From: Bacillota bacterium | GTDB lineage: Bacteria > Bacillota > Thermincolia > Thermincolales > CAZWUW01 | DNA length: 38,947 bases | Direction of reading: 5' to 3' | Assembly: GCA_049324975.1 (NCBI GenBank) | Contig: JBMOPI010000238.1 | Span: 1 to 38,947, forward strand | Made by a program: the position numbers and the translations under genes | Notes under the pieces: generated by a model | Databases searched by the model: none | What the model was told of the DNA's origin: nothing | The model's input: the letters and a program-made list of their open reading frames with translations, nothing else | Shown here: positions 1 to 31,456 of the stretch, piece after piece | How the letters are laid out: every line of letters starts with the position of its first letter | Position numbering within the stretch: position 1 is the first letter of the stretch

Positions 1-617
1 TGGGGCTGGAAAAGGTCCTGGATGCGGATAAAGTGGTGAATGTACCGGGGTGCCCTGCCCATCCCGACTGGATTGTCGCCACCCTGCTGCATGCGGCGCT
101 GTACGGGAAGCCGGAAATAGACGATTTTGGCAGGCCGCGGGTTTTTTTCGGTGGGTTGATCCATAATAATTGTCCCCGCCGGCAGTATTTTGACAACAGT
201 ATTTTTGCCGAAAATTTTGGTGAAGAGGGCTGCCTTTTGGAGCTCGGCTGTAAAGGACCGCTGACCCACGGCGATTGCCCCACCAGGTTATGGAACCGGG
301 GCCGGAACTGGTGTGTGGGCGGGGAAGGCCCGTGTACCGGTTGCACAGAACCGAGTTTCCCCCAGCTGATGATGCCTTTTTACAGCCGGATGCCGGATAT
401 CTCGGGACCGGGTATCCGCTCTTCGGCAGATACTGTCGGCATTGCCCTCGGGGCCGCCACCGGTGTGGGACTGGCCGCCCACCTGGTTGGGAACATACTG
501 ACCGGGCGGGTAGGGTCCCGTCGTGGGAGGTATTCGCTTAAGTCGAATACCGGTACGCCGGCAGGTGTTCCGGACAAGACCCTGGCCGTCGCGCCGGATA
601 AGGACGGTGAAGCCTGA
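1..617 (+). CDS. [NiFe]-hydrogenase small subunit, C-terminal part (5'-partial, enters from upstream)
   Basis: Frame 3 is open from nt 3 (GLEKVLDADKVVNVPGCPAHPDW...), so the GTG at 33 in the ORF track is not the true start. Small-subunit FeS motifs are present: GCPxxP, HNNCPRR, GCLLELGCKGPLTHGDCPTRLWN, CTGCTEPSFP. A C-terminal hydrophobic anchor is present (VGIALGAATGVGLAAHLVGNIL). The stop overlaps the next start (TGATG). Confidence 0.85.
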   Translation, partial: GLEKVLDADKVVNVPGCPAHPDWIVATLLHAALYGKPEIDDFGRPRVFFGGLIHNNCPRRQYFDNSIFAENFGEEGCLLELGCKGPLTHGDCPTRLWNRGRNWCVGGEGPCTGCTEPSFPQLMMPFYSRMPDISGPGIRSSADTVGIALGAATGVGLAAHLVGNILTGRVGSRRGRYSLKSNTGTPAGVPDKTLAVAPDKDGEA

Positions 618-1954
618 TGGGCCAATGGGTTACAATTCATCCCATTCTCCGGGAAAACATCCCCTACTCCCTGGAGGTGGAAATTGACGGGGGCAGGGTA
701 ATCAATGCCAGGTGTGGAGCTGCCGCCTTCTGGGGGTTGGAAACGGCTTTGGCCGGGAAGCATCCTTTTGATGCGCTGCAGGTGGTCCAGCGGTTCAATG
801 CCAACGCCGGGGTATCCCATGCCATTGCGGCGGCAGCAGGTTTTGAAAGGCTGCTACAGGTAGCCCCTGCCGGCAACAGCCGGCTGCTGCGGAATATTTT
901 GCAGGGCCTCGAGTTTATCCACTCCCATATTACGCATTTTTATCAGGGGGTGCTGCCGGATTTCCTGGACATTGCCGGTGCTCCCGCGGCGGGGGAAAAC
1001 CTACCGCCGGCGGTTGGCAAAGACTTAAGGGAGCATTACTGGCAGTCCTTTGAAACACTGGCTGTTATACACCGGGCCATGGCCGTATTCGGCGGCAGGA
1101 TGCCCTGCCTGACGAGCATCGTCCCCGGCGGGGTGGCGGTGCGGCCGGATTACCAGAAGGTTTTTGAAATACAGTCACACAGAAAGGCCGTTTTGCGATT
1201 TATCCGGGATACATACATAAAAGATGTGGAAAACCTGTTTGTTATTTTCCGCGAATATACAGGGGTCGGGGCCGGATCCCGGCGGATGCTGGCTATGGGA
1301 GCTTTTCCGTTGAGGGACGGGAAGGATGGCCGGCAGATGTTTTTCCCGCCCGGGACATCCCCCGGTGCCAGTGCGCCGCCGGATATTAATAAGCTGTCCG
1401 AAGACACGGCTTATACCTGGTTTAAGGGCGTTTCCGGCAGTCCGGGGGCGCTGCCCGAACCGGAGTTGAAGGACCGGGCCTATTCGTGGCTGCCTGTGCT
1501 AAAATTTGAAGAACAGCGCTGGGAAACAGGGCCCCTGGCCAGAATGACCATGGCCGGGGAAGAGAGGACGGCCCGGTTGGGTGTTCAGGCATACTCAGCG
1601 GCGGGCCGGCACTTGGCCAGAGCCTACGAAAGCTTATGGCTGGCAGAAAAAATGGAAGAATGGATAGACGGGCTCAAGCCCGGAAAGCCTGCGCTAACCG
1701 GAGAATTTAAGGTGCCGGAGGAAGGGGAAGGCTGGGCGGTGGCGGAAAGTCCCGCCGGATCAGTAGTCCACCGTTTCCGCCTGCAGGCCGGAAGGATAGA
1801 ATTTTACCGGGTTTTTGGCGCCGCGGCCTGGAACCTTTCCCCGCGGGACAGCGGTGAGCGTATGGGCCCGCTGGAAGAAGCCCTCATCGGTACACCGGTG
1901 GCCAATCCGCAGGACCCTGCGGAGGTGCTGAGGGTATTCAGGGCGTTTACTTAA
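617..1954 (+). CDS. [NiFe]-hydrogenase large-subunit homolog lacking the Ni-Fe cysteine ligands (445 aa)
   Basis: The ORF is colinear by eye with group-1 large subunits (VTIHPILRE..LEVEIDGGRVINA..FWGLETALAGKHPFDA...). The RxCGxCxxxH box reads RFNANAGVSH (nt 791-820). The ORF ends ...PAEVLRVFRAFT-TAA, just where DPCxxCxxH should start. It is translationally coupled to the small-subunit gene. Confidence 0.8.
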   Translation: MGQWVTIHPILRENIPYSLEVEIDGGRVINARCGAAAFWGLETALAGKHPFDALQVVQRFNANAGVSHAIAAAAGFERLLQVAPAGNSRLLRNILQGLEFIHSHITHFYQGVLPDFLDIAGAPAAGENLPPAVGKDLREHYWQSFETLAVIHRAMAVFGGRMPCLTSIVPGGVAVRPDYQKVFEIQSHRKAVLRFIRDTYIKDVENLFVIFREYTGVGAGSRRMLAMGAFPLRDGKDGRQMFFPPGTSPGASAPPDINKLSEDTAYTWFKGVSGSPGALPEPELKDRAYSWLPVLKFEEQRWETGPLARMTMAGEERTARLGVQAYSAAGRHLARAYESLWLAEKMEEWIDGLKPGKPALTGEFKVPEEGEGWAVAESPAGSVVHRFRLQAGRIEFYRVFGAAAWNLSPRDSGERMGPLEEALIGTPVANPQDPAEVLRVFRAFT

Positions 1955-1966
1955 GGAGGGTGCCTG

Positions 1967-2611
1967 ATGGGTCAGGGGATACTTTACCATACCGCCACAG
2001 CGCGGATTCTGCATTGGATAAATACGCTTTCTGTAGTTATGCTGACACTGACCGGTTTTTATATCCACTGGCCGTTGAAGTTTTCCCTGTTTTCCGGGAT
2101 GGATTCGGCACGCAAGCTGCATTTCATTTTTATGTATGTCGTTGTTTACGGTATAGTGATACGTGTATACTATGCCTGGGTGTCCGGGGATTATAGGGAT
2201 ATTATGTTTCGCCCGGCCGATATCAGGGGTCTGCCTGCGCTGGCCAGGTACTACTTTTTTATGACAAAAAGCCTGCCTGATTTCGGCAAGTATAACCCGG
2301 GCCAAAAACTGACTTATACCGGCTGGACGCTGTTGATTATAGTGCAGGCTGTAACCGGCTTTATTCTCTATTGGCCTACACGGCTGGCCTGGTTGGCTGA
2401 GCCCCTGGGTGGCATGATGATGATGCGTCAGGTCCACTACCTGGTTACCTGGATTTTCGTTGCTACCGTGGGTTTACATGTCTACCTGGGTTTCCTTGGC
2501 GGGCCGGCGGTGCTTAAATCAATAATCACCGGTTATATGTCTGCAGGGGCACATATGCAGCCTGATTCCGGGGAGGCCGGTACCGACCGGCTGATGACTT
2601 TGAGGAGCTGA
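1967..2611 (+). CDS. Ni/Fe-hydrogenase b-type cytochrome subunit (HyaC/CybH family)
   Basis: The 214-aa protein has about four TM helices. The N-terminus YHTATARILHWINTLSVVMLTLTGFYIHWP is typical of the family, with conserved His residues in the helices. An AAGGAGGG RBS lies 6 nt upstream. The position after the small and large subunits fits. Confidence 0.8.
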   Translation: MGQGILYHTATARILHWINTLSVVMLTLTGFYIHWPLKFSLFSGMDSARKLHFIFMYVVVYGIVIRVYYAWVSGDYRDIMFRPADIRGLPALARYYFFMTKSLPDFGKYNPGQKLTYTGWTLLIIVQAVTGFILYWPTRLAWLAEPLGGMMMMRQVHYLVTWIFVATVGLHVYLGFLGGPAVLKSIITGYMSAGAHMQPDSGEAGTDRLMTLRS

Positions 2612-2616
2612 AATAA

Positions 2617-2958
2617 ATGCACGAGATGTCCCTTATGGCCAGTATTTTTGACATTATCGGCCGCAACCTGGAAGCATACCCGGGGGCCAGGGTGAAAAAA
2701 GTGAAGCTGGTGGTGGGCGCCATGACTAACGTGGTGCCCGATGCCATGCAGATGGCCTTTGAAGCTATGGTCAGGGGCACGCCGGCTGAAGGGGCCGAAT
2801 TGACCATTGAGGAAGTTCCGCTGACTGCCCGCTGTCACGAATGTAAGTGGCAGGGAGAGATCGAAGAGTACAGGTTTTTTTGCCCCGCCTGTTCGTCACC
2901 GCAGCTGGAGCTTCTGACCGGCCGGGAACTATACATTGAAAGTCTGGAGGTTGAGTAA
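2617..2958 (+). CDS. hypA: hydrogenase nickel-insertion protein HypA
   Basis: The 113-aa protein has the N-terminal MHE Ni-binding motif (MHEMSL) and the zinc site CHEC-x12-CPAC. A GAGGAG RBS is present. Confidence 0.9.
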   Translation: MHEMSLMASIFDIIGRNLEAYPGARVKKVKLVVGAMTNVVPDAMQMAFEAMVRGTPAEGAELTIEEVPLTARCHECKWQGEIEEYRFFCPACSSPQLELLTGRELYIESLEVE

Positions 2959-3617
2959 TGGAAATAAAAATTGGCGCAGGCATTCTGGATGTAAATCAGG
3001 CAACTGCGGAGAGCAACCGGCAGGTTTTTGACCGGCACGGCGCCGTGGCGGTCAATTTGATGGGCTCACCGGGAGCGGGTAAAACAACCCTGTTGGAAAA
3101 AACCATCGACACATTGAAAGACCGGCTAAAGATGGCGGTAATTGAAGGAGATATTTATACTTCCAAAGACGCTGTGCGCATTGAAAAACACGGCATCCCC
3201 GTCAGGCAGATCAACACCGGCGGGGCCTGTCACCTGGATGCCCGCATGGTGGAGAAGACTCTGCCCCACTTTGACCTGGCCGGCATCGATTTAATGGTTA
3301 TTGAAAACGTCGGGAACCTGGTTTGCCCGGTGGAATTCAACCTTGGCGAACATTATAAAATTGCGGTGCTCAGCATTACCGAGGGAGACGATAAGCCGCT
3401 GAAATACCCCCTGATCTTTAAAGAGTCGGCGGCGGTGGTATTGAACAAAGTTGACCTGCTCGACTTTACCGATGTGAATATGGATAACCTGCAAAAGGAT
3501 ATTTTAAGCATTAATCCGCAAATCAGGATTTTCCAGGTTTCCGCCCGAACCGGGGCCGGTATCGGTGAATGGGCCGGCTGGCTGGAGGAAATTGCGGGGC
3601 AGCCCGGAGGGGAGTAA
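2958..3617 (+). CDS. hypB: hydrogenase nickel-incorporation GTPase HypB
   Basis: The sequence shows the P-loop GSPGAGKTT, ENVGNLVCP, GGACHLDA (Cys/His metal site) and NKVDL (G4). A TAATG overlap with hypA is present. There is no N-terminal CxxCGC or His-rich tract. Confidence 0.9.
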   Translation: MEIKIGAGILDVNQATAESNRQVFDRHGAVAVNLMGSPGAGKTTLLEKTIDTLKDRLKMAVIEGDIYTSKDAVRIEKHGIPVRQINTGGACHLDARMVEKTLPHFDLAGIDLMVIENVGNLVCPVEFNLGEHYKIAVLSITEGDDKPLKYPLIFKESAAVVLNKVDLLDFTDVNMDNLQKDILSINPQIRIFQVSARTGAGIGEWAGWLEEIAGQPGGE

Positions 3618-5978: not shown

Positions 5979-7016
5979 TTGTGGTATTTTGCGGTGTTGG
6001 TCCTGGCGGCCGGAGCCTTCTTTTGGTGGTTCCGCCGTAAAAAAAGTTCAGCTGGGGCCGGTGGTCAGAACACTGCCGGCCAAAAGGTCTTATCCGATCT
6101 GGAGCGGGGCGTGCCGGAAAAATTTTTGGCCGCAGTAAGGAAATCAGATATGGAAACCGTTGGCCTGGTAGTGGATAATCTTGACAAATACGAACCGGCC
6201 GTCCGCAGCCGGGTTATCCTTCAGCTAGAGCAGGAAGGCGTGGTTGAAAGTTATATCGACTGGCTCCGAGGTAAAGATATTGAACAGAAGAAGGTTGCCG
6301 CCCGCAGACTTGCGTATATCGGTTCTCCCCGGGCGGTAATGCCACTGGTAGAGGCCGTCGCTGACAAAAACGAAGAGGTCCGTCTTACGGCAGCCGGTGC
6401 ACTCAAGCGCATAAAAGATCCGGCCGGTATCGAGCCCCTTATCAGGGCGCTCAAGGAACCCATGAAATGGCTGCCGGCCAGAATTGCGGAGGTGTTGGTG
6501 GAACTGGGGCCGTTGGCTTTGCCGGCTCTGCTTGCCGGCTTGGATGACCCGGACCCGGAATTCAAATGCTATATTATTGAAATTCTCGGGGAGACAGGTA
6601 ATCCGGAGAGTTTAAGCAAACTGGCCGGGGTCTTGCGGGACCAAAACCCCGTAATCCGGGCAAAGACAGCTGCAGCTATGGGCAATATCGGCAGCAGCGG
6701 GGCCGTACAAGCGCTCCTCGGGGCGCTTTTGGATACTGATAAAAATGTGCGGAACCAGGCGGTGCTGGCTCTGCGGCGGATTGGCAGCCCGGCGGCGGTG
6801 GCCGGCTTGGCCGGTGTGACAACCGACCCGGATAAATTTGTGCGTACCAATGCGGTGGAGGCGCTGGGCAAACTCGGTGATACCGGCCGGGCAGTATTGC
6901 GGCAGATTGCCGGCGATCCCGGGCATCCCGAAAAAGACCGTGCCATAGCCATCTTGCAGAAACAGGGTAGCAAAAATGAAGCAAAGGTTAATATTTTATA
7001 CCATAGGAAAGTATAA
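5979..7016 (+). CDS. HEAT-repeat (PBS-lyase-type) protein with N-terminal TM anchor
   Basis: An N-terminal helix WYFAVLVLAAGAFFWWF is followed by repeated ~31-aa units of the form D.D..VR..AA.ALG.IG...AV..L (at least 6). The start is TTG with a GGGGGAGG RBS upstream. Confidence 0.75.
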   Translation: MWYFAVLVLAAGAFFWWFRRKKSSAGAGGQNTAGQKVLSDLERGVPEKFLAAVRKSDMETVGLVVDNLDKYEPAVRSRVILQLEQEGVVESYIDWLRGKDIEQKKVAARRLAYIGSPRAVMPLVEAVADKNEEVRLTAAGALKRIKDPAGIEPLIRALKEPMKWLPARIAEVLVELGPLALPALLAGLDDPDPEFKCYIIEILGETGNPESLSKLAGVLRDQNPVIRAKTAAAMGNIGSSGAVQALLGALLDTDKNVRNQAVLALRRIGSPAAVAGLAGVTTDPDKFVRTNAVEALGKLGDTGRAVLRQIAGDPGHPEKDRAIAILQKQGSKNEAKVNILYHRKV

Positions 7017-7040
7017 ACGCGCCAGCGAAGCCTTTTTAAT
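7006..7040. repeat. palindromic intergenic repeat, internally deleted copy overlapping the HEAT-gene stop codon
   Basis: GGAAAGTATAAACGCGC+CAGCGAAGCCTTTTTAAT equals the two ends of the 33272-33342 copy, joined at a CGCGC pentamer. Confidence 0.7.
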
Positions 7041-7086
7041 ATAAATAGAATAGGTACGGTAAAGTAGTTTTACACAGGAGGGGACA

Positions 7087-7965
7087 ATGAAAATAGCTGT
7101 CTTGGAATTATGGCACAACCAGGTTTTCAGGGAGTATTTACTGCCTATCGCGGGCTACCTGGTGGCGGCTTTCATAGGCATTAAGATCGGTGACTTCATT
7201 ATCAACAAAATCTTCCGGCCACGGGAAAAACTATATTTCGACGAGCGCCGGGTCAACACCATGCGTACTCTGCTGCGCAGCGTGCTCAGGTACGCCGTTT
7301 ATTTTATTTTGATTTTTATGATACTTGAGACGACCGTTAAAGACATCAAAGGGTTTCTGGCCGGCGCCGGGATTATCGGGGTGGCCCTCGGTTTTGGCGC
7401 CCAGAGCCTGGTCCGGGATGTGATTACAGGATTCTTTATTTTATTTGAAAACCAGTATGCTGTGGGGGAATATGTCACCATCGGCAACCTCTCCGGTTTT
7501 GTAGAGGAGATGGAACTTAGGGTGACCAAGCTCCGGGACTGGGGCGGCGAGATGCATTTCATCCCCAACGGCCAGGTGACCACAGTGACAAACTTCAGCC
7601 GGGGCAGTATGCGGGCGTTGGTGGAAATAAGCATTGCTTACGAGGAGGAAATTGACCGGGCCCTGTCGGTATTAAAAAGGGAAGCAGCCGAAATTGCCGG
7701 TGAACTTAAAGAAGTTGTCGAAGAAGGTCCGGAGGTATTGGGAGTAGTGGCTTTAGGCCCTTCGGAAGTGGTGATCAGGGTCGTGGCCAAAACCAAGCCC
7801 ATGGAGCAATGGGCGGTGGAGCGGGAAATGCGGAAGCGGTTCAAAGCGGCCTTTGACCGGGAAGGCATTGAAATTCCTTATCCTAAACGGGTGATGATAA
7901 CACCGCTCGGCAACAATGCGCCGGGCCCGGGCAGGGCCCCGGAAAAACTGAAGGCGCCCGAGTAA
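7087..7965 (+). CDS. mechanosensitive ion channel (MscS family)
   Basis: Three N-terminal TM helices are followed by GAQSLVRDVITGFFILFENQYAVGEYV and a beta-domain (HFIPNGQVTTVTNFS). An AGGAGGGG RBS is present. Confidence 0.85.
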   Translation: MKIAVLELWHNQVFREYLLPIAGYLVAAFIGIKIGDFIINKIFRPREKLYFDERRVNTMRTLLRSVLRYAVYFILIFMILETTVKDIKGFLAGAGIIGVALGFGAQSLVRDVITGFFILFENQYAVGEYVTIGNLSGFVEEMELRVTKLRDWGGEMHFIPNGQVTTVTNFSRGSMRALVEISIAYEEEIDRALSVLKREAAEIAGELKEVVEEGPEVLGVVALGPSEVVIRVVAKTKPMEQWAVEREMRKRFKAAFDREGIEIPYPKRVMITPLGNNAPGPGRAPEKLKAPE

Positions 7966-7979
7966 GGGGGAAAACGGAT

Positions 7980-8192
7980 ATGACTCATAAGTATTTAGTT
8001 GGCGATATAGTAAAAATGCGTAAACAGCATCCCTGCGGCAGCGACGAGTGGGAAGTCATGCGCACAGGGATGGATTTCCGGATTAAATGCCTGGGCTGTG
8101 GGAGACAGGTCATGCTGCCCCGGCCGAAATTTGAAAAAGGTGTGAAGAAGGTGCTGGCGGCTGCTGCCGGGGATGCTACCGGCGGGGAATAA
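7980..8192 (+). CDS. DUF951-family small protein
   Basis: The 70-aa sequence VGDIVKMRKQHPCGSDEWEVMRTGMDFRIKCLGCGRQVMLPRPKFEK has the CxxxxxW...CxxC pattern. It sits in the ychF neighbourhood, as in other Firmicutes. Confidence 0.7.
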   Translation: MTHKYLVGDIVKMRKQHPCGSDEWEVMRTGMDFRIKCLGCGRQVMLPRPKFEKGVKKVLAAAAGDATGGE

Positions 8193-8268
8193 CAGCTGCA
8201 GCGAAGAGATGTTATTTGATACCTTGTTCTTTGTCATAGGTTGACCAACCTAACATGTCCAATACGAT

Positions 8269-8445
8269 TCAGTAGCCGGAAACTGCTTCGACCAATAGGA
8301 ATCCGGCGATGATATACAATACTGCGGCCGTGAACGGCCTGATGTTGATGATTCCGAAGTAGGTCAGGCCGGCAAGGGCCAAGGCTGCCAGCAGCCTGAC
8401 GGTTCTGTCTATGGGGCCGATATTGTGTTTAAAACCTAGTTCCAT
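8269..8445 (-). CDS. small two-TM membrane protein, DUF2892 (YgaP-like) type
   Basis: The sequence is MELGFKHNIGPIDRTVRLLAALALAGL...FLLVEAVSGY. The ATG at 8445 lies 6 nt after GAGGTG (8452-8457 on the complement). The longer track start at 8463 has no RBS. Confidence 0.5.
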   Translation of the reverse strand: MELGFKHNIGPIDRTVRLLAALALAGLTYFGIINIRPFTAAVLYIIAGFLLVEAVSGY

Positions 8446-8520
8446 GCGAATCACCTCAAACATAGTATCTGTTTGCGGTGTTTTTTACATGCACTGTAAT
8501 AGAAAGTTACGGGAGGTCAA

Positions 8521-8901
8521 ATGTTGTTTTTTGCCGTTATCACCATGTTTGGAGCCTTAATATTCTATTCCTACGCCGTTTTGAACGGGCGCAAAGAGGG
8601 TCTCCGCCTAAAGCACCTCTTTGCTTTTGGAACGGGACTGCTGCTTGACTACCTGGGCACCGCCCAGATGAATATTTTTGAGCAGACATACGGCAAAGCG
8701 CCGGACTGGCATAATTATTCCGGGGCCATTTCTTTTTGGGGTATGGCCTTCCACTTTTTCCTTGCCCTGCTGGCCACTGCATTTGGCCGGGCACGTCAGG
8801 CCAACCGGGTTTTCCACAAGGTTAGTGTGATTATTTACTCAATATGGCTATTTGCGTTTATCAGCGGTGCTATTGCCGGGATTGGTAAAATAACGGATTA
8901 A
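8521..8901 (+). CDS. hypothetical integral membrane protein (about 4 TM)
   Basis: The 126-aa product is hydrophobic, and a GGGAGG RBS is present. I do not confidently recognise a family. Confidence 0.5.
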   Translation: MLFFAVITMFGALIFYSYAVLNGRKEGLRLKHLFAFGTGLLLDYLGTAQMNIFEQTYGKAPDWHNYSGAISFWGMAFHFFLALLATAFGRARQANRVFHKVSVIIYSIWLFAFISGAIAGIGKITD

Positions 8902-9002
8902 AAAAATATAATACTGACTAGCGCGGGATTACGAGAAGGTCGTCATTAAGACGGCAGCGCGTAATGCGTGGGATCCTTCTTCCCGGGGTCTGTATTATAT
9001 TA

Positions 9003-10481: not shown

Positions 10482-11783
<1,302 letters not shown>

Positions 11784-12829
11784 GTGATGCAGATGAAAAC
11801 AATTTACCTGGACCATAATGCCACTACCCCGGTGGATGAGCAGGTTTTTGGGGCTATGGTGCCGTTTTTGCGGGATAACTTCGGGAACCCCTCGAGTAAC
11901 CATATTTTCGGTAAGGTGAACAAAGCAGCCATTGCCAAAGCCCGGAATCAGGTGGCGCAGTTACTGGGGTGCGACCCGGGGGAAGTCGTCTTCACCAGCG
12001 GCGGAAGTGAGTCCAATAATCATGCGATAAAAGGCGTGGCCTGGGCCAACCGGCATAAAGGGAAACACATTATTACCAGTATTGTGGAACACCCGGCAGT
12101 GCTTAACCCCTGCCGTTACCTGGAACAACAGGGTTACCCGTCACTTATCTTCCCGTAGATGAATACGGCCGGGTTAACCCGGCTCAGGTTGAAGCGGCGG
12201 TTACTAATGAAACCATACTCATCACGATCATGCACGCCAATAATGAGGTTGGGACCATCCAGCCTATAGCCGCTGTAGGTGAAATTGCCCGGCGTAAAGG
12301 CATTGTTTTCCATACCGATGCTGCCCAATCCGTAGGTAAGATTCCCACCAAAGTGGACGAACTAAAGGTTGACCTGTTGACGGTGGCCGGCCATAAATTT
12401 TACGGACCTAAGGGCGTAGGTGCGTTGTATATCCGTAAAGGTACGAACATAGAGTCATTTATCCACGGTGCCGGCCACGAGCAGGGCCGCAGGGCCGGTA
12501 CGTAGAATGTAGCATACATTGTAGCCCTGGGTACGGCCAGCGAACTGGCTTATATTGAACTGCAAAAGAATATGGAGCGGCTGGTGACTTTGCGGGACAA
12601 GCTCCATCAACTGATTGTGGAAAACGTCGATGATGTTGATTTAAACGGACATCCTGTTGAACGGCTGCCTAATACCTTAAATTTAAGCTTCAAAGGCGTA
12701 TTTGGAGCAGCGGTGCTGGCAGAGCTGCCGGAAATTGCAGCTTCACGGGTGCAGGAAACAAAAATGCCCCTATTACGGGGGCTAAAGTTATTTATAGTTT
12801 CTTTCCAGATTAAGCAGTTTTTGTTTTAA
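11784..12829 (+). pseudogene. cysteine desulfurase (NifS/IscS family) pseudogene
   Basis: Three ORF-track pieces (11784-12158, 12230-12505, 12572-12829) together read as one NifS (IYLDHNATTP...SGGSESNN...IMHANNEVGTIQPI...FHTDAAQSVGK...VAGHKFYGPKG...RRAGT*NV...). A 1-nt deletion lies near 12136-12142. An in-frame TAG sits at 12503-12505, where Glu is conserved. Homology ends at 12745, before the catalytic SGSAC loop. Confidence 0.8.
12755..12782 (-). terminator. rho-independent terminator of ogt
   Basis: On the minus strand, GCCCC-loop-GGGGC is followed by ATTTTTGTTT, 6 nt after the ogt stop. Confidence 0.6.
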
Positions 12830-13294
12830 ATCCAAGCCGCACCCAAAGCCTACCAAAGCGCCGTTGCTGCCGATTACCCGGTGACAGGGCACCAGCAGCA
12901 GGACCGGGTTGGCGTGGTTTGCCATGCCAACGGCCCTGGCCCCTTTGGGGGTGCCGGCCGCCCTGGCAATTTCACCGTAGCTGGCTGTTTCCCCATAGGG
13001 AATTGTCCGTAACTGGTCCCATACCCTTAACTGAAAAGGGGTCCCCCGCAGGTCAAGGGGCAGGTCAAACTGTTTTCGATGCCCCAGCAAATATTCCGTT
13101 AGTTCCCCGGCGGCGTCCCGCAGTACCCGCAGGTTGAGGATTCCGCGGGAACCAAGGTTTTTTTTCAGCCAGGCAAAAAAACTTTCGGCATCATTACGCA
13201 GAAAGTGAACCTGGCATATTCCTTTTTCCGTAGATGCTATCATGAAGGTGCCCCAGGTTGTTTCCACCGGGGCATAATATACCTTTTCGGGCAC
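12788..13294 (-). CDS. ogt: methylated-DNA--protein-cysteine methyltransferase
   Basis: The active site PCHRVIGSNG is present, along with TPFQLRVW and IPYGETASYGEIA. The GTG at 13294 lies 7 nt after GGAGGTG (13302-13308 on the complement). The track start at 13339 has no RBS. Confidence 0.85.
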   Translation of the reverse strand: MPEKVYYAPVETTWGTFMIASTEKGICQVHFLRNDAESFFAWLKKNLGSRGILNLRVLRDAAGELTEYLLGHRKQFDLPLDLRGTPFQLRVWDQLRTIPYGETASYGEIARAAGTPKGARAVGMANHANPVLLLVPCHRVIGSNGALVGFGCGLDLKQKLLNLERNYK

Positions 13295-13397: not shown

Positions 13398-13510
13398 TAC
13401 TCTCTTATCAAGAGCGGCGGAGGGACTGGCCCTGTGAAGCCCGGCAACCATCTCGTTATTTTGAGAAAGGTGCTAATTCCTGTAGGAGTAATCCTAACAG
13501 ATGAGAGGAT
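13398..13510 (+). promoter_or_regulatory. SAM-I (S-box) riboswitch aptamer
   Basis: The sequence CTCTTATCAAGAGCGGCGGAGGGACTGGCCCTGTGAAGCCCGGCAACC...GGTGCTAATTCC...AGATGAGAG matches the S-box core. The P1 stem is CTCTTATC/GATGAGAG. Confidence 0.93.
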
Positions 13511-13521
13511 TAAAGTGAAAT

Positions 13522-13553
13522 AAAATCTCTTCATCTGAAGAGATTTTATTTTT
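13522..13553 (+). terminator. riboswitch expression-platform terminator
   Basis: AAAATCTCTTC-ATCT-GAAGAGATTTT is followed by a T-run. The 5' arm can alternatively pair with the P1 3' strand as an antiterminator. Confidence 0.85.
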
Positions 13554-13603
13554 AAATGAACTAGCCCGTTTCGACGGGCGGCGAGATGAAAGGAAGGACA
13601 AAA

Positions 13604-14737
13604 ATGGGAAAGAACACGGAGTTAGTAAGGATTGGTCTGGCCACAGACAGACGGACAGGAGCCCTCAGCACGCCCATTTACCAGTGTGCCACCTTTGCCC
13701 ACCCGGCCCTGGGTGAAAGCACGGGTTACGACTACTCCCGGACCTGCAACCCCACCCGGGAGGTACTGGAAGAGGGCATCGCCCGGCTGGAGGGAGGGTG
13801 CCGCGGCTTTGCTTTTTCGACAGGCATGGCGGCTATTACCACCCTGCTCCTGCTCTTTAAACAGAGTGATCACCTTGTGGTTACGGAGGACTTATACGGG
13901 GGAACTTACCGACTGCTGGACAAAATATTTACAAATTTCGGGTTATCTGTTTCATATGTTGATACCAGTGACCTGCGGCAGGTTCAAGATGCTATACAGG
14001 ACAATACAAAAGCCATTTTTATCGAAACACCGACCAACCCCCTGCTCAAGATTGCCGATATCGCCGCCATCGCAGATACAGCTAAACAAAAGGGGCTGCT
14101 GACCATTGTTGACAACACCTTTATGACCCCGGTATTACAGCGTCCCCTGGAACTGGGCGCCGACATCGTGGTGCACAGCGGCACCAAATACCTGGGCGGC
14201 CATAACGACCTGCTGGCCGGTCTTGTGGTGGCCAAAGACGCGGCCCTGGCCGAAAAAATCGGTTTTCTCCAGAACGGCGCCGGCGCAGTATTAGCCCCCT
14301 TTGATTCCTGGCTGCTTATCCGCGGTCTGAAAACCCTGGGCCTCCGGGTAGAGCGGCAGGAACAAAACGCCCGGCAGCTGGCCGAATGGCTTGATGAACA
14401 CCCCTCTGTAACCAAAGTGTATTATCCCGGCTTAAGTACACACCCGGGCCATTTTACTGCCCGGAAACAGGCTTCCGGTTACGGGGCAATGGTTTCTTTC
14501 TTAGTAAAGGAGCAACTGCTTGTAGAGCAGGTTTTAAAACGGGTGCAGGTATTTTCTTTTGCTGAGAGCCTGGGGGGCGTTGAGAGTCTGGTTACTTTTC
14601 CGGCTGTCCAGACCCATGCCGATATCCCGCCGGAAACCAGGGCCAGGCTGGGTATTGACGACTGCCTGCTGCGGATTTCCGTCGGGGTGGAGGATATTGA
14701 CGACCTTATCGCAGATTTGGTCCAGGCCCTATCATAA
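13604..14737 (+). CDS. metI: cystathionine gamma-synthase / O-acetylhomoserine thiolyase-type PLP enzyme (MetI-like)
   Basis: The Cys/Met PLP family is indicated by YSRTCNPT, DNTF.TP and HSGTKYLGGHND. It is the first gene after the S-box, as in the B. subtilis metI-metC operon. The ATG at 13604 lies 6 nt after AAGGAAGG. The symbol is assigned by analogy only. Confidence 0.75.
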   Translation: MGKNTELVRIGLATDRRTGALSTPIYQCATFAHPALGESTGYDYSRTCNPTREVLEEGIARLEGGCRGFAFSTGMAAITTLLLLFKQSDHLVVTEDLYGGTYRLLDKIFTNFGLSVSYVDTSDLRQVQDAIQDNTKAIFIETPTNPLLKIADIAAIADTAKQKGLLTIVDNTFMTPVLQRPLELGADIVVHSGTKYLGGHNDLLAGLVVAKDAALAEKIGFLQNGAGAVLAPFDSWLLIRGLKTLGLRVERQEQNARQLAEWLDEHPSVTKVYYPGLSTHPGHFTARKQASGYGAMVSFLVKEQLLVEQVLKRVQVFSFAESLGGVESLVTFPAVQTHADIPPETRARLGIDDCLLRISVGVEDIDDLIADLVQALS

Positions 14738-14758: not shown

Positions 14759-15895
14759 ATGAAATTTGGAACTAAGGTGCTGCACACCGGCAACGAAATA
14801 GATCCCGCCACCGGGGCGGTAAGCATCCCCATTTTCCAGGCTTCCACCTTCAAACAGCCTTCCGTCGAAAATTTCGGACCCTACGATTACGCCCGTTCCG
14901 GCAACCCCACCAGGGATGCCCTGGAAGGAATAATCGCTGAACTTGAGGGTGGGGTCAGCGGGTTTGCCTTCGCCTCCGGGATGGCGGCTATATCAAGTGT
15001 ATTCCTGCTGTTTTCACCCGGCGATCACCTGATAGTTTGCGAGGACGTTTACGGCGGGACTTATCGCGCGCTGACCAAACTGTTCAGCAGGCTGGGCATC
15101 CGGACAACTTTTGTGGACACTACCGACCCGGAAAAAGTCCGGACGGCCATCACCCCGGGAACTAAGGCCATTTACCTGGAGTCGCCGTCTAATCCCCTGC
15201 TGAAAATAACCGACTTGGATGCCATGGTAGCTATCGCCAAAGAAAAAGAACTCCTCACCATCATCGATAACACCTTTATGACGCCATATTTTCAAAAACC
15301 CCTTGACCTCGGCATTGACATCGTCATCCACAGCGCCACCAAATACATCGGGGGCCACAGCGATGTGCTTGCCGGTTTGGTGGTGGTAAAAGACCGCAGG
15401 CTGGCCGGGGAAATTAAGTTCATCCAGAACTCCATCGGGGCCGTTTTGGGTCCGCAGGATTGCTGGCTCCTGATGCGGGGCATCAAAACCCTGAAGGTGA
15501 GGATGGACCAGCACCAGGCCGGGGCGTTGGCCATCGCGCAGTGGCTCAGGGAACAGCCGGAAATCACCGAGGTTTTTTACCCCGGCCTGCCCGGCCACAC
15601 CGGCTACGAAATCAACAAAAAACAGGCCACCGGCTTTGGCGGTATTGTTTCTTTCAAAACGGAAACAGAAGAACTGGCCAGGCAGATCATGAACAATGTA
15701 AAGCTGCCGGCCCTGGCGGTAAGCCTTGGGGCGGTGGAAAGCATTATCTCCTTCCCGCCGAAGATGTCTCACGCCGCCATGCCGCCGGAAGTAAGGCATG
15801 CTCAGGGGATAACGGATAACCTGATCCGCTTCTCGGTTGGACTGGAAGAGCCGGCCGACCTTATCGAAGACCTGCGGCAGGCGATAAAAGGGTAA
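14759..15895 (+). CDS. metC: cystathionine beta-lyase-type PLP enzyme (MetC-like)
   Basis: This paralog of the preceding gene shows YARSGNPT and HSATKYIGGHSD. The N-terminus MKFGTKVLHTG..TGAVSIPIFQASTFKQ resembles the MetC type. The symbol is assigned by analogy only. Confidence 0.75.
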   Translation: MKFGTKVLHTGNEIDPATGAVSIPIFQASTFKQPSVENFGPYDYARSGNPTRDALEGIIAELEGGVSGFAFASGMAAISSVFLLFSPGDHLIVCEDVYGGTYRALTKLFSRLGIRTTFVDTTDPEKVRTAITPGTKAIYLESPSNPLLKITDLDAMVAIAKEKELLTIIDNTFMTPYFQKPLDLGIDIVIHSATKYIGGHSDVLAGLVVVKDRRLAGEIKFIQNSIGAVLGPQDCWLLMRGIKTLKVRMDQHQAGALAIAQWLREQPEITEVFYPGLPGHTGYEINKKQATGFGGIVSFKTETEELARQIMNNVKLPALAVSLGAVESIISFPPKMSHAAMPPEVRHAQGITDNLIRFSVGLEEPADLIEDLRQAIKG

Positions 15896-31073: not shown

Positions 31074-31149
31074 GAGCCATTAGCTCAGTTGGTAGAGCAC
31101 CTGACTTTTAATCAGGGTGTCGCTGGTTCGAGTCCAGCATGGCTCACCA
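31074..31149 (+). tRNA. tRNA-Lys (anticodon UUU), CCA encoded
   Basis: The cloverleaf was folded by hand. The acceptor stem is GAGCCAT/ATGGCTC, the anticodon loop is CTTTTAA, and the T-loop is TTCGAGT. Confidence 0.95.
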
Positions 31150-31155
31150 TTTTAC

Positions 31156-31231
31156 GGCCCCTTGGTCAAGCGGTTTAAGACACCGCCCTTTCACGGCGGT
31201 AACACGGGTTCGAATCCCGTAGGGGTCACCA
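31156..31231 (+). tRNA. tRNA-Glu (anticodon UUC), CCA encoded
   Basis: The acceptor stem is GGCCCCT/AGGGGTC (one G-U pair). The anticodon stem CCGCC/GGCGG carries the loop CTTTCAC, and the T-loop is TTCGAAT. Confidence 0.95.
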
Positions 31232-31243
31232 TATCAGTAAACT

Positions 31244-31270
31244 AAAGGAAATGCTCCGGCATTTCCTTTA
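31244..31270 (+). terminator. terminator after tRNA-Glu
   Basis: AAAGGAAATGC-TCCG-GCATTTCCTTT is followed by A. Confidence 0.6.
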
Positions 31271-31280
31271 CTTGTACCCC

Positions 31281-31323
31281 AGGAACGCATAGCGCTCCTG
31301 CGGCATAAAAAAGGCTAACGCGG
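31281..31323. repeat. palindromic intergenic repeat, 5' module only
   Basis: AGGAACGCATAGCGCTCCTGCGGCATAAAAAAGGCTAACGCGG parallels 33272-33313 (GGGAAAGTATAACGCGCTGCGGTATAAAAAAGGCTAACGCCGG). Confidence 0.6.
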
Positions 31324-31333
31324 CCCAAACCCC

Positions 31334-31362
31334 TTGCATAAAGTGCCGCTTTTGCATATAAT
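31334..31362 (+). promoter_or_regulatory. sigma-A-type promoter of tRNA-Gly (and probably scfA-scfB)
   Basis: The arrangement is TTGCAT, 17 nt, TATAAT. Confidence 0.55.
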
Positions 31363-31381
31363 ATATATTAGACCAAAACGG

Positions 31382-31456
31382 GCGGAAGTAGTTCAGTGGT
31401 AGAATAACGGCTTCCCAAGCCGCAGGTCGCGGGTTCGAATCCCGTCTTCCGCTCCA
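31382..31456 (+). tRNA. tRNA-Gly (anticodon CCC), CCA encoded
   Basis: The acceptor stem is GCGGAAG/CTTCCGC, the anticodon loop is TTCCCAA, and the T-loop is TTCGAAT. Confidence 0.95.

Follow-up and report, generated by a model that had tools for sequence, protein, structure and literature searches.

Does an operon for a membrane-bound hydrogenase still encode a hydrogenase when its large subunit has lost every cysteine ligand of the Ni-Fe centre, is it a gene cluster on its way to loss, or has it taken over another redox function? The question is raised by the first genes of a 38,947-bp stretch of DNA (hereafter the window), which is the entire contig JBMOPI010000238.1 of a metagenome-assembled genome (MAG) of a Bacillota bacterium (GCA_049324975.1). 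A gene at positions 617..1954 of the window, on the forward strand as are all features of this operon given below, encodes a Cys-less and C-terminally shortened homologue of the [NiFe]-hydrogenase large subunit (MFZ5641187.1, 445 residues, ATG start, TAA stop at 1952-1954). It lies between the remaining part of a small-subunit gene and a cytochrome b gene. A preliminary description of this DNA had proposed that all four Ni-Fe cysteine ligands are lost in an otherwise intact operon, which would be either recently inactivated or repurposed. The analysis described here supports the losses and argues for the second alternative: the same losses are conserved under purifying selection in a family of related operons, which we refer to as the Cys-less or Thermincola-type family.

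The 445-residue open reading frame (ORF) matches the Pfam model PF00374 (NiFeSe_Hases) at E=2.4e-63, with 215.3 bits against a gathering threshold of 25.8. We set the register by a phmmer alignment with the [NiFeSe] large subunit of D. vulgaris Hildenborough (PDB 6z8m_B, E=6.7e-64). This alignment places no cysteine at the L1 motif (RxCGxCxxxH), which reads RFNANAGVSH at 791..820, with QRFNANAGVSH standing against QRICGVCPTAH of the reference. At the RIEGH site, the window protein reads RENIP (650..664), with the proton-gate glutamate replaced by asparagine and the histidine by proline. Both readings had already been made in the preliminary description and are borne out by the alignment. The invariant catalytic arginine of PRGxxxH is Ala380 in the family alignment (1754..1756, here within ESPAGSVVH), and the invariant arginine of FRGxE is Trp39. 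The protein ends with ...RVFRAFT, and the TAA codon follows directly after RAFT, at the point where the reference, at ...RLIRAF, runs straight into DPUxxCxxH. The whole L2 motif (DPCxxCxxH) and any protease-cleaved tail are therefore gone, so the loss of all four ligands and the stop exactly in front of the second cysteine pair stand as first claimed. The only cysteines left in the large subunit are C33 and C164, also in agreement with that description. The shortening itself had been overestimated at about 100 residues; the nearest relatives are group-1a/[NiFeSe] enzymes of 470–500 residues, so that the deficit amounts to only about 25–50 residues and is modest.

A homologue search over 5.8 billion proteins returned eight proteins of 441–447 residues with 65–100% identity to the window large subunit, and the next matches were canonical large subunits at 34–36%. 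All eight close orthologues (8/8) lack the L1 cysteines and terminate at RAF(T/S). A profile search over 1.84 billion representative proteins revealed two further sublineages. One comprises Thermincola ferriacetica (WP_052217699.1), Thermincola potens JR (ADG83819.1/WP_013121807.1), and an uncultured relative (P0295); the other, which we call the third sublineage, is represented by P0122/P0274 (GCA_016841725.1). The large subunits of both are without ligand cysteines and end with RAFE, RSFE, or RSF. Altogether, the same cysteine losses and the same end point are found in 14 distinct sequences from the three sublineages, all of them intact ORFs, with a family length of 440–450 residues.

The gene order is conserved as well. 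In the contigs of the window's clade, it reads yyaC, small subunit with a twin-arginine translocation (Tat) signal, large subunit, cytochrome b, hypA, hypB, cvpA, M18 peptidase, HEAT, MscS, DUF951, and ychF. The loci of T. potens and of the third sublineage contain this operon as well, likewise placed between yyaC and the cvpA-M18-ychF genes. The derived residues W39, P16, and R223 are common to all three sublineages, as is the end point. The three sublineages cluster together in a rough neighbour-joining (NJ) tree and are reciprocal best relatives. The simplest reading of these comparisons would be a single ancient ligand loss followed by long retention.

What has become of the former active site can be followed in the family alignment. 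Cysteine occurs at the L1 ligand positions in none of the 12 aligned members; the occupants vary (N/H/Q/S and A/Q/L/D) and differ both within and between the three sublineages, and such variable positions do not constitute a new conserved ligand set. Neither does the alignment contain a conserved Cys/His-rich site that could replace the lost ligands. By contrast with the canonical relatives, in which 55 columns are at least 90% conserved, 27 of these 55 columns are lost in the Cys-less family, including every catalytic one. The proline in place of the RIEGH histidine is invariant (12/12), the second-sphere residues R59, H68, and H385 of the old NiFe site are kept, and W39, W142, R223, Q55/Q110, and E369 are invariant residues specific to the family. 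The AlphaFold2 (AF2) model of the large-subunit monomer has a predicted local distance difference test score (pLDDT) of 93.5, and Foldseek superimposes it on the D. vulgaris Hildenborough [NiFeSe] large subunit with a template modelling (TM) score of 0.94. Together, alignment and model show a large subunit that keeps the hydrogenase fold and would be unable to ligate NiFe(CO)(CN)2 in the known way. Since the stop codon is TAA, selenocysteine (Sec) read-through and a split large subunit of the VhuA/VhuU type are excluded; the L1 cysteines are missing too, and a six-frame search of the whole window found no separate DPCxxC peptide. An assembly or sequencing artefact was likewise rejected, as the same features are present in independent assemblies from Logan, ENA, JGI, and NCBI.

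Pairwise ratios of nonsynonymous to synonymous substitution rates (dN/dS, NG86 method), computed within the window's clade, have a median of 0.15 for the large subunit (range 0.10–0.24, with dS up to about 2). The medians of its partners are 0.12 for the small subunit, 0.17 for cytochrome b, 0.13 for HypA, and 0.08 for HypB. With dN/dS this low, the gene is neither a plain pseudogene nor a recently inactivated one. A recently inactivated operon, one of the two options put forward initially, is also at odds with the same losses occurring in 14 distinct sequences from sublineages that share only 33–37% identity, and with the synteny of all loci examined; the losses and the early stop are conserved in the relatives, and dN/dS is not near 1. 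Between the Cys-less sublineages, the identity of 33–36% in the large subunit compares with 55–56% for the small subunit, 56–61% for cytochrome b, and 64–72% for HypB, making the large subunit the fastest-evolving protein of the operon, at about twice the rate of its partners. The canonical loci L014 and L015, the one pair used as a control, share 44% identity in the large subunit and 32% in the small subunit. The large subunit is thus the more conserved of the two in this canonical pair, and the order is reversed in the Cys-less family. Judging from these comparisons, constraint is shifted away from the large subunit in the Cys-less family, although it is still under purifying selection.

The partners of the large subunit appear fully equipped. 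The small-subunit gene is represented in the window by its 3' part (3..617, coding 3-614), which encodes the C-terminal 204 residues and matches Pfam NiFe_hyd_SSU_C (1.3e-31) and TIGR00391 (hydA). Its TGA stop (615-617) overlaps the ATG of the large subunit (617-619) in the sequence TGATG at 615-619, in agreement with the translational coupling noted at the outset. The fragment holds the last proximal-cluster cysteine (PGCPAHP), the distal HxxC...CxxxxxC and medial cysteine motifs, and a C-terminal hydrophobic anchor (fragment residues 144-165), so that the visible FeS motifs and the anchor are present as had been described. Because the contig end cuts the gene, orthologues have to stand in for the Tat signal and for three of its four proximal-cluster cysteines. 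The full-length orthologues carry both: their Tat signal reads (T/S)RRxF(I/L)K, and all cluster cysteines and histidines align with those of the Dm. baculatum small subunit (1cc1_S, 8.6e-76). Tat signal, all proximal, medial, and distal ligands, and C-terminal anchor are kept in all four small subunits compared (L001, L006, L010, and L011), which span the three sublineages. With a Tat signal and a membrane anchor in the small subunit, the complex is expected outside the cytoplasm.

The gene for a Ni/Fe-hydrogenase-type (HyaC-type) cytochrome b of 214 residues (1967..2611) is intact and has a good ribosome-binding site, as claimed, with GGAGGG located 6 nt upstream of the start. It matches Pfam Ni_hydr_CYTB (1.3e-31) and TIGR02125 (132.1 bits against a cutoff of 121.5), and four of its histidines are kept throughout the family alignment. 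Five nucleotides past its stop begins hypA (2617..2958, 113 residues, Pfam HypA 2.2e-34), encoding the N-terminal MHE motif and two CxxC pairs; its position is conserved in all syntenic loci. The start of the HypB GTPase gene (2958..3617, 219 residues, Pfam cobW/HypB 1.6e-23) overlaps the hypA stop. A maturation endopeptidase, hypCDEF, and other hydrogenase genes are all absent from the window, and no HycI-family gene occurs in the window or in the 10 syntenic loci. The canonical relatives L014 and L015 carry a HycI endopeptidase gene in the operon. In the Firmicutes locus L014, it stands directly after cytochrome b, in the slot that hypA-hypB occupy in the Cys-less operons. The description of the operon as otherwise intact therefore holds for the small subunit and cytochrome b, but not for the endopeptidase gene, which is missing with hypA-hypB in its place.

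How does this complex relate to known systems? In sequence and fold, it is closest to the group 1a [NiFe(Se)] uptake hydrogenases, such as those of D. vulgaris Hildenborough, Dm. baculatum, and Firmicutes operons like L014. Its small subunit, with Tat signal and three clusters, is of the kind found in these enzymes, and so is its cytochrome b. Unlike the Cys-less family, group 1a enzymes possess the L1/L2 cysteines, the catalytic glutamate and arginine, the C-terminal tail, and an endopeptidase gene. The hallmarks of a functional group-1 hydrogenase are therefore divided: the HyaC-type cytochrome b and the three-cluster small subunit with its Tat signal are present, and L1, L2, the catalytic arginine with the proton-gate glutamate, and the tail with its cognate endopeptidase (HybD/HycI) are absent. 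The large subunit's best NCBIfam matches, the HysA equivalogs, also stay at about half of the curated cutoffs or less (NF033181, 305.9 against 600; NF045518, 286.1 against 780). Lacking L1/L2 cysteines, catalytic residues, tail, and endopeptidase gene, and scoring below these cutoffs, the complex is therefore not an H2-activating enzyme.

Ligand-less hydrogenase relatives have precedents. NuoD/NuoB of complex I and the Ehr complexes are built on the group-4 hydrogenase fold, have lost the NiFe ligands, kept the adjacent [4Fe-4S] cluster, and serve a role other than H2 turnover. The Thermincola-type family resembles them in the loss of ligands from a large-subunit fold with the small-subunit [4Fe-4S] cluster retained. 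The lineage is nevertheless a different one, as the NuoD and FpoD models match the window large subunit only at E=0.0037 and 0.0011, respectively, over about 90 residues. The Cys-less complex also has a three-cluster Tat small subunit, a cytochrome b instead of antiporter-like subunits, and a predicted outward-facing orientation. Another group-4-derived complex that lacks a working NiFe site is the MBS/Mbx sulfane reductase of Thermococcales; its chemistry has been proposed to take place at the proximal FeS cluster. It differs from the Cys-less family in its Mrp-type membrane arm, cytoplasmic orientation, and group-4 ancestry, leaving kinship at the superfamily level only; no Mrp or Nuo membrane genes are present in the window. 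The regulatory H2-sensing hydrogenases (group 2b, HupUV/HoxBC) have the four cysteines, no Tat signal, and a linked histidine kinase, whereas the Cys-less family has a Tat signal, none of these cysteines, and no kinase gene in the loci examined. The family thus appears to descend from a group-1a (Firmicutes/[NiFeSe]-like) membrane-bound uptake hydrogenase and would be best classed as a hydrogenase-derived, non-hydrogenase redox complex.

The Thermincola-type family is not the only one of its kind. Among the representative proteins, we found several further Cys-less group-1-like large-subunit lineages, which form separate branches in the rough NJ tree. They share with the Thermincola-type family a group-1-like large subunit without L1 and L2 cysteines and differ from it in their gene contexts, with neither cytochrome b nor hypAB. 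One set is a family of about 490 residues with 13 representatives at 50% clustering (P0194, P0196, P0199, P0201, P0210, P0214, P0225-P0227, P0231, P0243, P0251, and P0267), one of which is named SAR324. Its L1 resembles QQISGDSGVSH, and its full-length C-terminus, SFAFSxxDAV(H/Q), is free of cysteine. At one of its loci (L013, 7019-9461), the adjoining small-subunit-like protein has also lost the proximal-cluster cysteines. P0131 (L012, 6456-9437) belongs to a cluster of cytochrome c3, small subunit, and large subunit; it ends with ...RSF, and its small-subunit clusters are intact. P0129, which kept the tail as DPNITAAVH, and P0139/P0142 are further independent Cys-less large subunits. As several lineages lost the cysteines independently, the phenomenon is recurrent, which tempers the uniqueness of the Thermincola-type family and widens its relevance.

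What, then, might a hydrogenase without its metal centre do? The reading we prefer, to which we give about an even chance, is an H2-inactive, quinone-linked, outward-facing FeS/cytochrome b module, in which the large subunit is mainly a structural pseudo-enzyme. The Tat pathway would export the complex, which would then be held by its anchor at the outer side of the membrane. Its electron path would connect the quinone pool (probably menaquinone), by way of the cytochrome b hemes, with the FeS clusters in the order distal, medial, and proximal. The large subunit would be retained mainly as an obligatory folding and assembly partner, capping the small subunit and shielding the proximal cluster. 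The repurposed FeS/quinone or scaffold module suggested in the preliminary description fits the data in the same way, with FeS ligands, Tat signal, anchor, and cytochrome b histidines all conserved and a large subunit evolving about twice as fast. The hypA and hypB genes are probably a holdover of the ancestral gene order, of use to other Ni enzymes, for example, the Ech hydrogenase of Thermincola. Thermincola genomes carry carbon monoxide dehydrogenase (CODH)-Ech clusters, which need Hyp proteins (PMC13000667). Several points weigh against a mainly structural large subunit. A mere electron wire that stops at a buried proximal cluster has no evident use, and the operon encodes no redox partner on the outer side. 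The proximal-cluster ligands are strictly conserved, as are the second-sphere residues R59, H68, and H385, so that something may still happen at that end. The Cys-less family of L013 lost its proximal cluster, which indicates that the cluster is dispensable when truly unused. Finally, the reversed order of divergence has a single canonical pair as its control.

These points lead to the main rival reading, which we entertain but rather doubt, namely that a new reaction site without NiFe has arisen. The emptied pocket at the subunit interface would then be open to a substrate, for example a shuttle resembling a quinone, a form of sulfane sulfur, or some other small oxidant, for redox chemistry at the proximal [4Fe-4S] cluster. 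The four proximal-cluster cysteines are invariant across sublineages with only about 35% identity in the large subunit, the independent family of about 490 residues has lost them, and the large subunit itself remains under purifying selection (median dN/dS 0.15). The retained second-sphere residues together with the invariant W39, W142, R223, Q55/Q110, and E369 are also in favor of such a site. In the group-4 lineage, the quinone site of complex I lies at NuoD/NuoB next to cluster N2, and MBS is proposed to reduce sulfane at the proximal cluster. By analogy, the Cys-less complex could be a group-1 parallel of the complex I/MBS transition, with an extracytoplasmic catalytic or binding site (e.g., for soluble quinone/humic-type shuttles or sulfur species) that three FeS clusters and cytochrome b would connect with the quinone pool; this extension we propose more tentatively still. 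A new site is, however, difficult to reconcile with the variation of the former ligand and RENIP residues between sublineages and with the large subunit being the fastest-evolving operon protein. Moreover, the family-specific invariant residues may do no more than pack the space vacated by the lost C-terminal strand and cofactor, and the gene context points to no candidate substrate.

The remaining explanations are all improbable in our view, although each has some observation in its favor. A role of the large-subunit-like protein in nickel handling, maturation, or regulation, as a Ni-binding, storage, scaffold, regulatory, or sensor component, would account for the tight linkage of hypA-hypB to cytochrome b in every locus examined. 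Consistent with it are also the LarB/LarE(/LarC) genes upstream of the operon in most relatives and, in T. potens, a perfect sigma-54 promoter together with an activator whose sensor domain resembles [FeFe]-hydrogenase (both described below). We nevertheless consider it a poor candidate: no conserved Cys/His-rich site has taken the place of the lost ligands, such a role would need neither the cytochrome b nor three FeS clusters, and a complex outside the cytoplasm would be remote from cytoplasmic maturation. That the operon is a dead, non-expressed relic drifting toward loss is far less credible. Every catalytic determinant and the endopeptidase gene are indeed gone, and an extra truncated small-subunit gene in the T. 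potens locus could be a sign of past rearrangement. Yet the ORFs are intact in 14 distinct sequences, dN/dS is 0.10–0.24 at dS up to about 2, the partner genes are equally constrained, and length (440–450 residues), end point, and synteny are the same across about 65% sequence divergence. Equally hard to believe is a complex that is still a hydrogenase, holding the metal centre by non-cysteine ligands or with the help of a C-terminal peptide supplied in trans, for which the split VhuA/VhuU of methanococci is a precedent. HypA and HypB are present and the fold is intact, but the L1 cysteines are gone too, which goes beyond what a split gene explains. Furthermore, the stop is TAA and not the Sec codon TGA, no frame of the window encodes a DPCxxC peptide, and the catalytic arginine and glutamate are replaced by variable residues.

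The surroundings of the operon contain several other genes related to hydrogenases and nickel. In most relatives, genes for LarB (AIRC), a LarE-like protein, and in some loci LarC (Ni_insertion) lie 4–6 kb upstream of the operon (L001, 2808-5589; L004, 3990-5574; L006, 4089-5670; L010, 692-3539; L011, 2199-3774); LarB, LarE, and LarC are encoded by the genes for the nickel-pincer nucleotide cofactor. Genes for the [FeFe]-hydrogenase maturases HydE/G/F are located farther upstream in L001, L002, and L006. An alignment of the upstream regions of the relatives contains conserved AT-rich boxes.

The T. potens locus (L010, CP002028) has additional features. Directly upstream of its Cys-less operon, a gene at 6726-8921 encodes a sigma-54 activator composed of Fe_hyd_lg_C, Sigma54_activat, and HTH_8 domains. 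The sensor part resembles the H-domain of [FeFe]-hydrogenases, and the regulator is absent from the window's clade. A perfect -24/-12 sigma-54 consensus (TGGCACAAATATTGCA), the one perfect site in a scan of L010, is located at 11590-11605, inside the operon and just before a second small-subunit gene, which is followed by the cytochrome b gene, hypA, and hypB; a relaxed scan of L010 allowing two mismatches was not enriched (8 matches against 11 expected). The arrangement suggests H2- or redox-responsive control of the T. potens operon. The second small-subunit gene (11640-12374), between the Cys-less large subunit and cytochrome b, encodes a short protein of 244 residues. It keeps the proximal-cluster cysteines and has neither a twin-arginine signal nor the C-terminal FeS domain. 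It may be what is left of a duplication, or else a subunit in its own right with one cluster.

The rest of the window consists of origin-proximal housekeeping genes, including ychF, dnaB, a Lon-like protease, purA, and Cys/Met pyridoxal phosphate (PLP) enzymes. An S-adenosylmethionine (SAM) riboswitch (92.9 bits) at 13402-13507 precedes two tandem PLP genes of Cys/Met metabolism (13586-14737 and 14759-15895), and a third paralogue is found at 10497-11783. An Rfam DUF3800-VII RNA (71 bits) lies at 8912-8999, upstream of ychF. The relative L007 has a gene for a DUF3800 protein (12314-13150) just upstream of ychF (13434-14534), and the window has no such gene there. A tRNA cluster at 31074-31456 comprises tRNA-Lys(ttt), tRNA-Glu(ttc), and tRNA-Gly(ccc).

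This would be the first case found in which a group-1 hydrogenase with small subunit, large subunit, and cytochrome b gave rise to a ligand-less derivative that is conserved and under selection. To our knowledge, the known ligand-less hydrogenase descendants (complex I, Ehr, and MBS) all come from group 4. The full-text literature searched, whose coverage was partial, contained no description of a Cys-less group-1 unit or of this Thermincola locus. The initial statement that no such unit had been described thus agrees with the literature, but the databases hold the several other undescribed Cys-less group-1-like lineages mentioned above. As the operon is present in T. potens JR, a cultured, completely sequenced, and electroactive organism, the metal content, activity, localisation, and role of the complex are directly testable.

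In public databases, these proteins are annotated as the nickel-dependent hydrogenase large subunit, as in the case of MFZ5641187.1. Predictions of H2 uptake from the genomes of Thermincola-like bacteria and their MAGs are therefore likely to be wrong for this locus, and Cys-less genes ought to be left out when the capacity for H2 uptake is tallied. Pseudo-hydrogenases may form a class that arises repeatedly and that curation by motif tends to discard. If a new reaction site has indeed replaced the NiFe centre, the Cys-less complexes would represent a previously unrecognised class of respiratory enzymes in electroactive Gram-positive bacteria.

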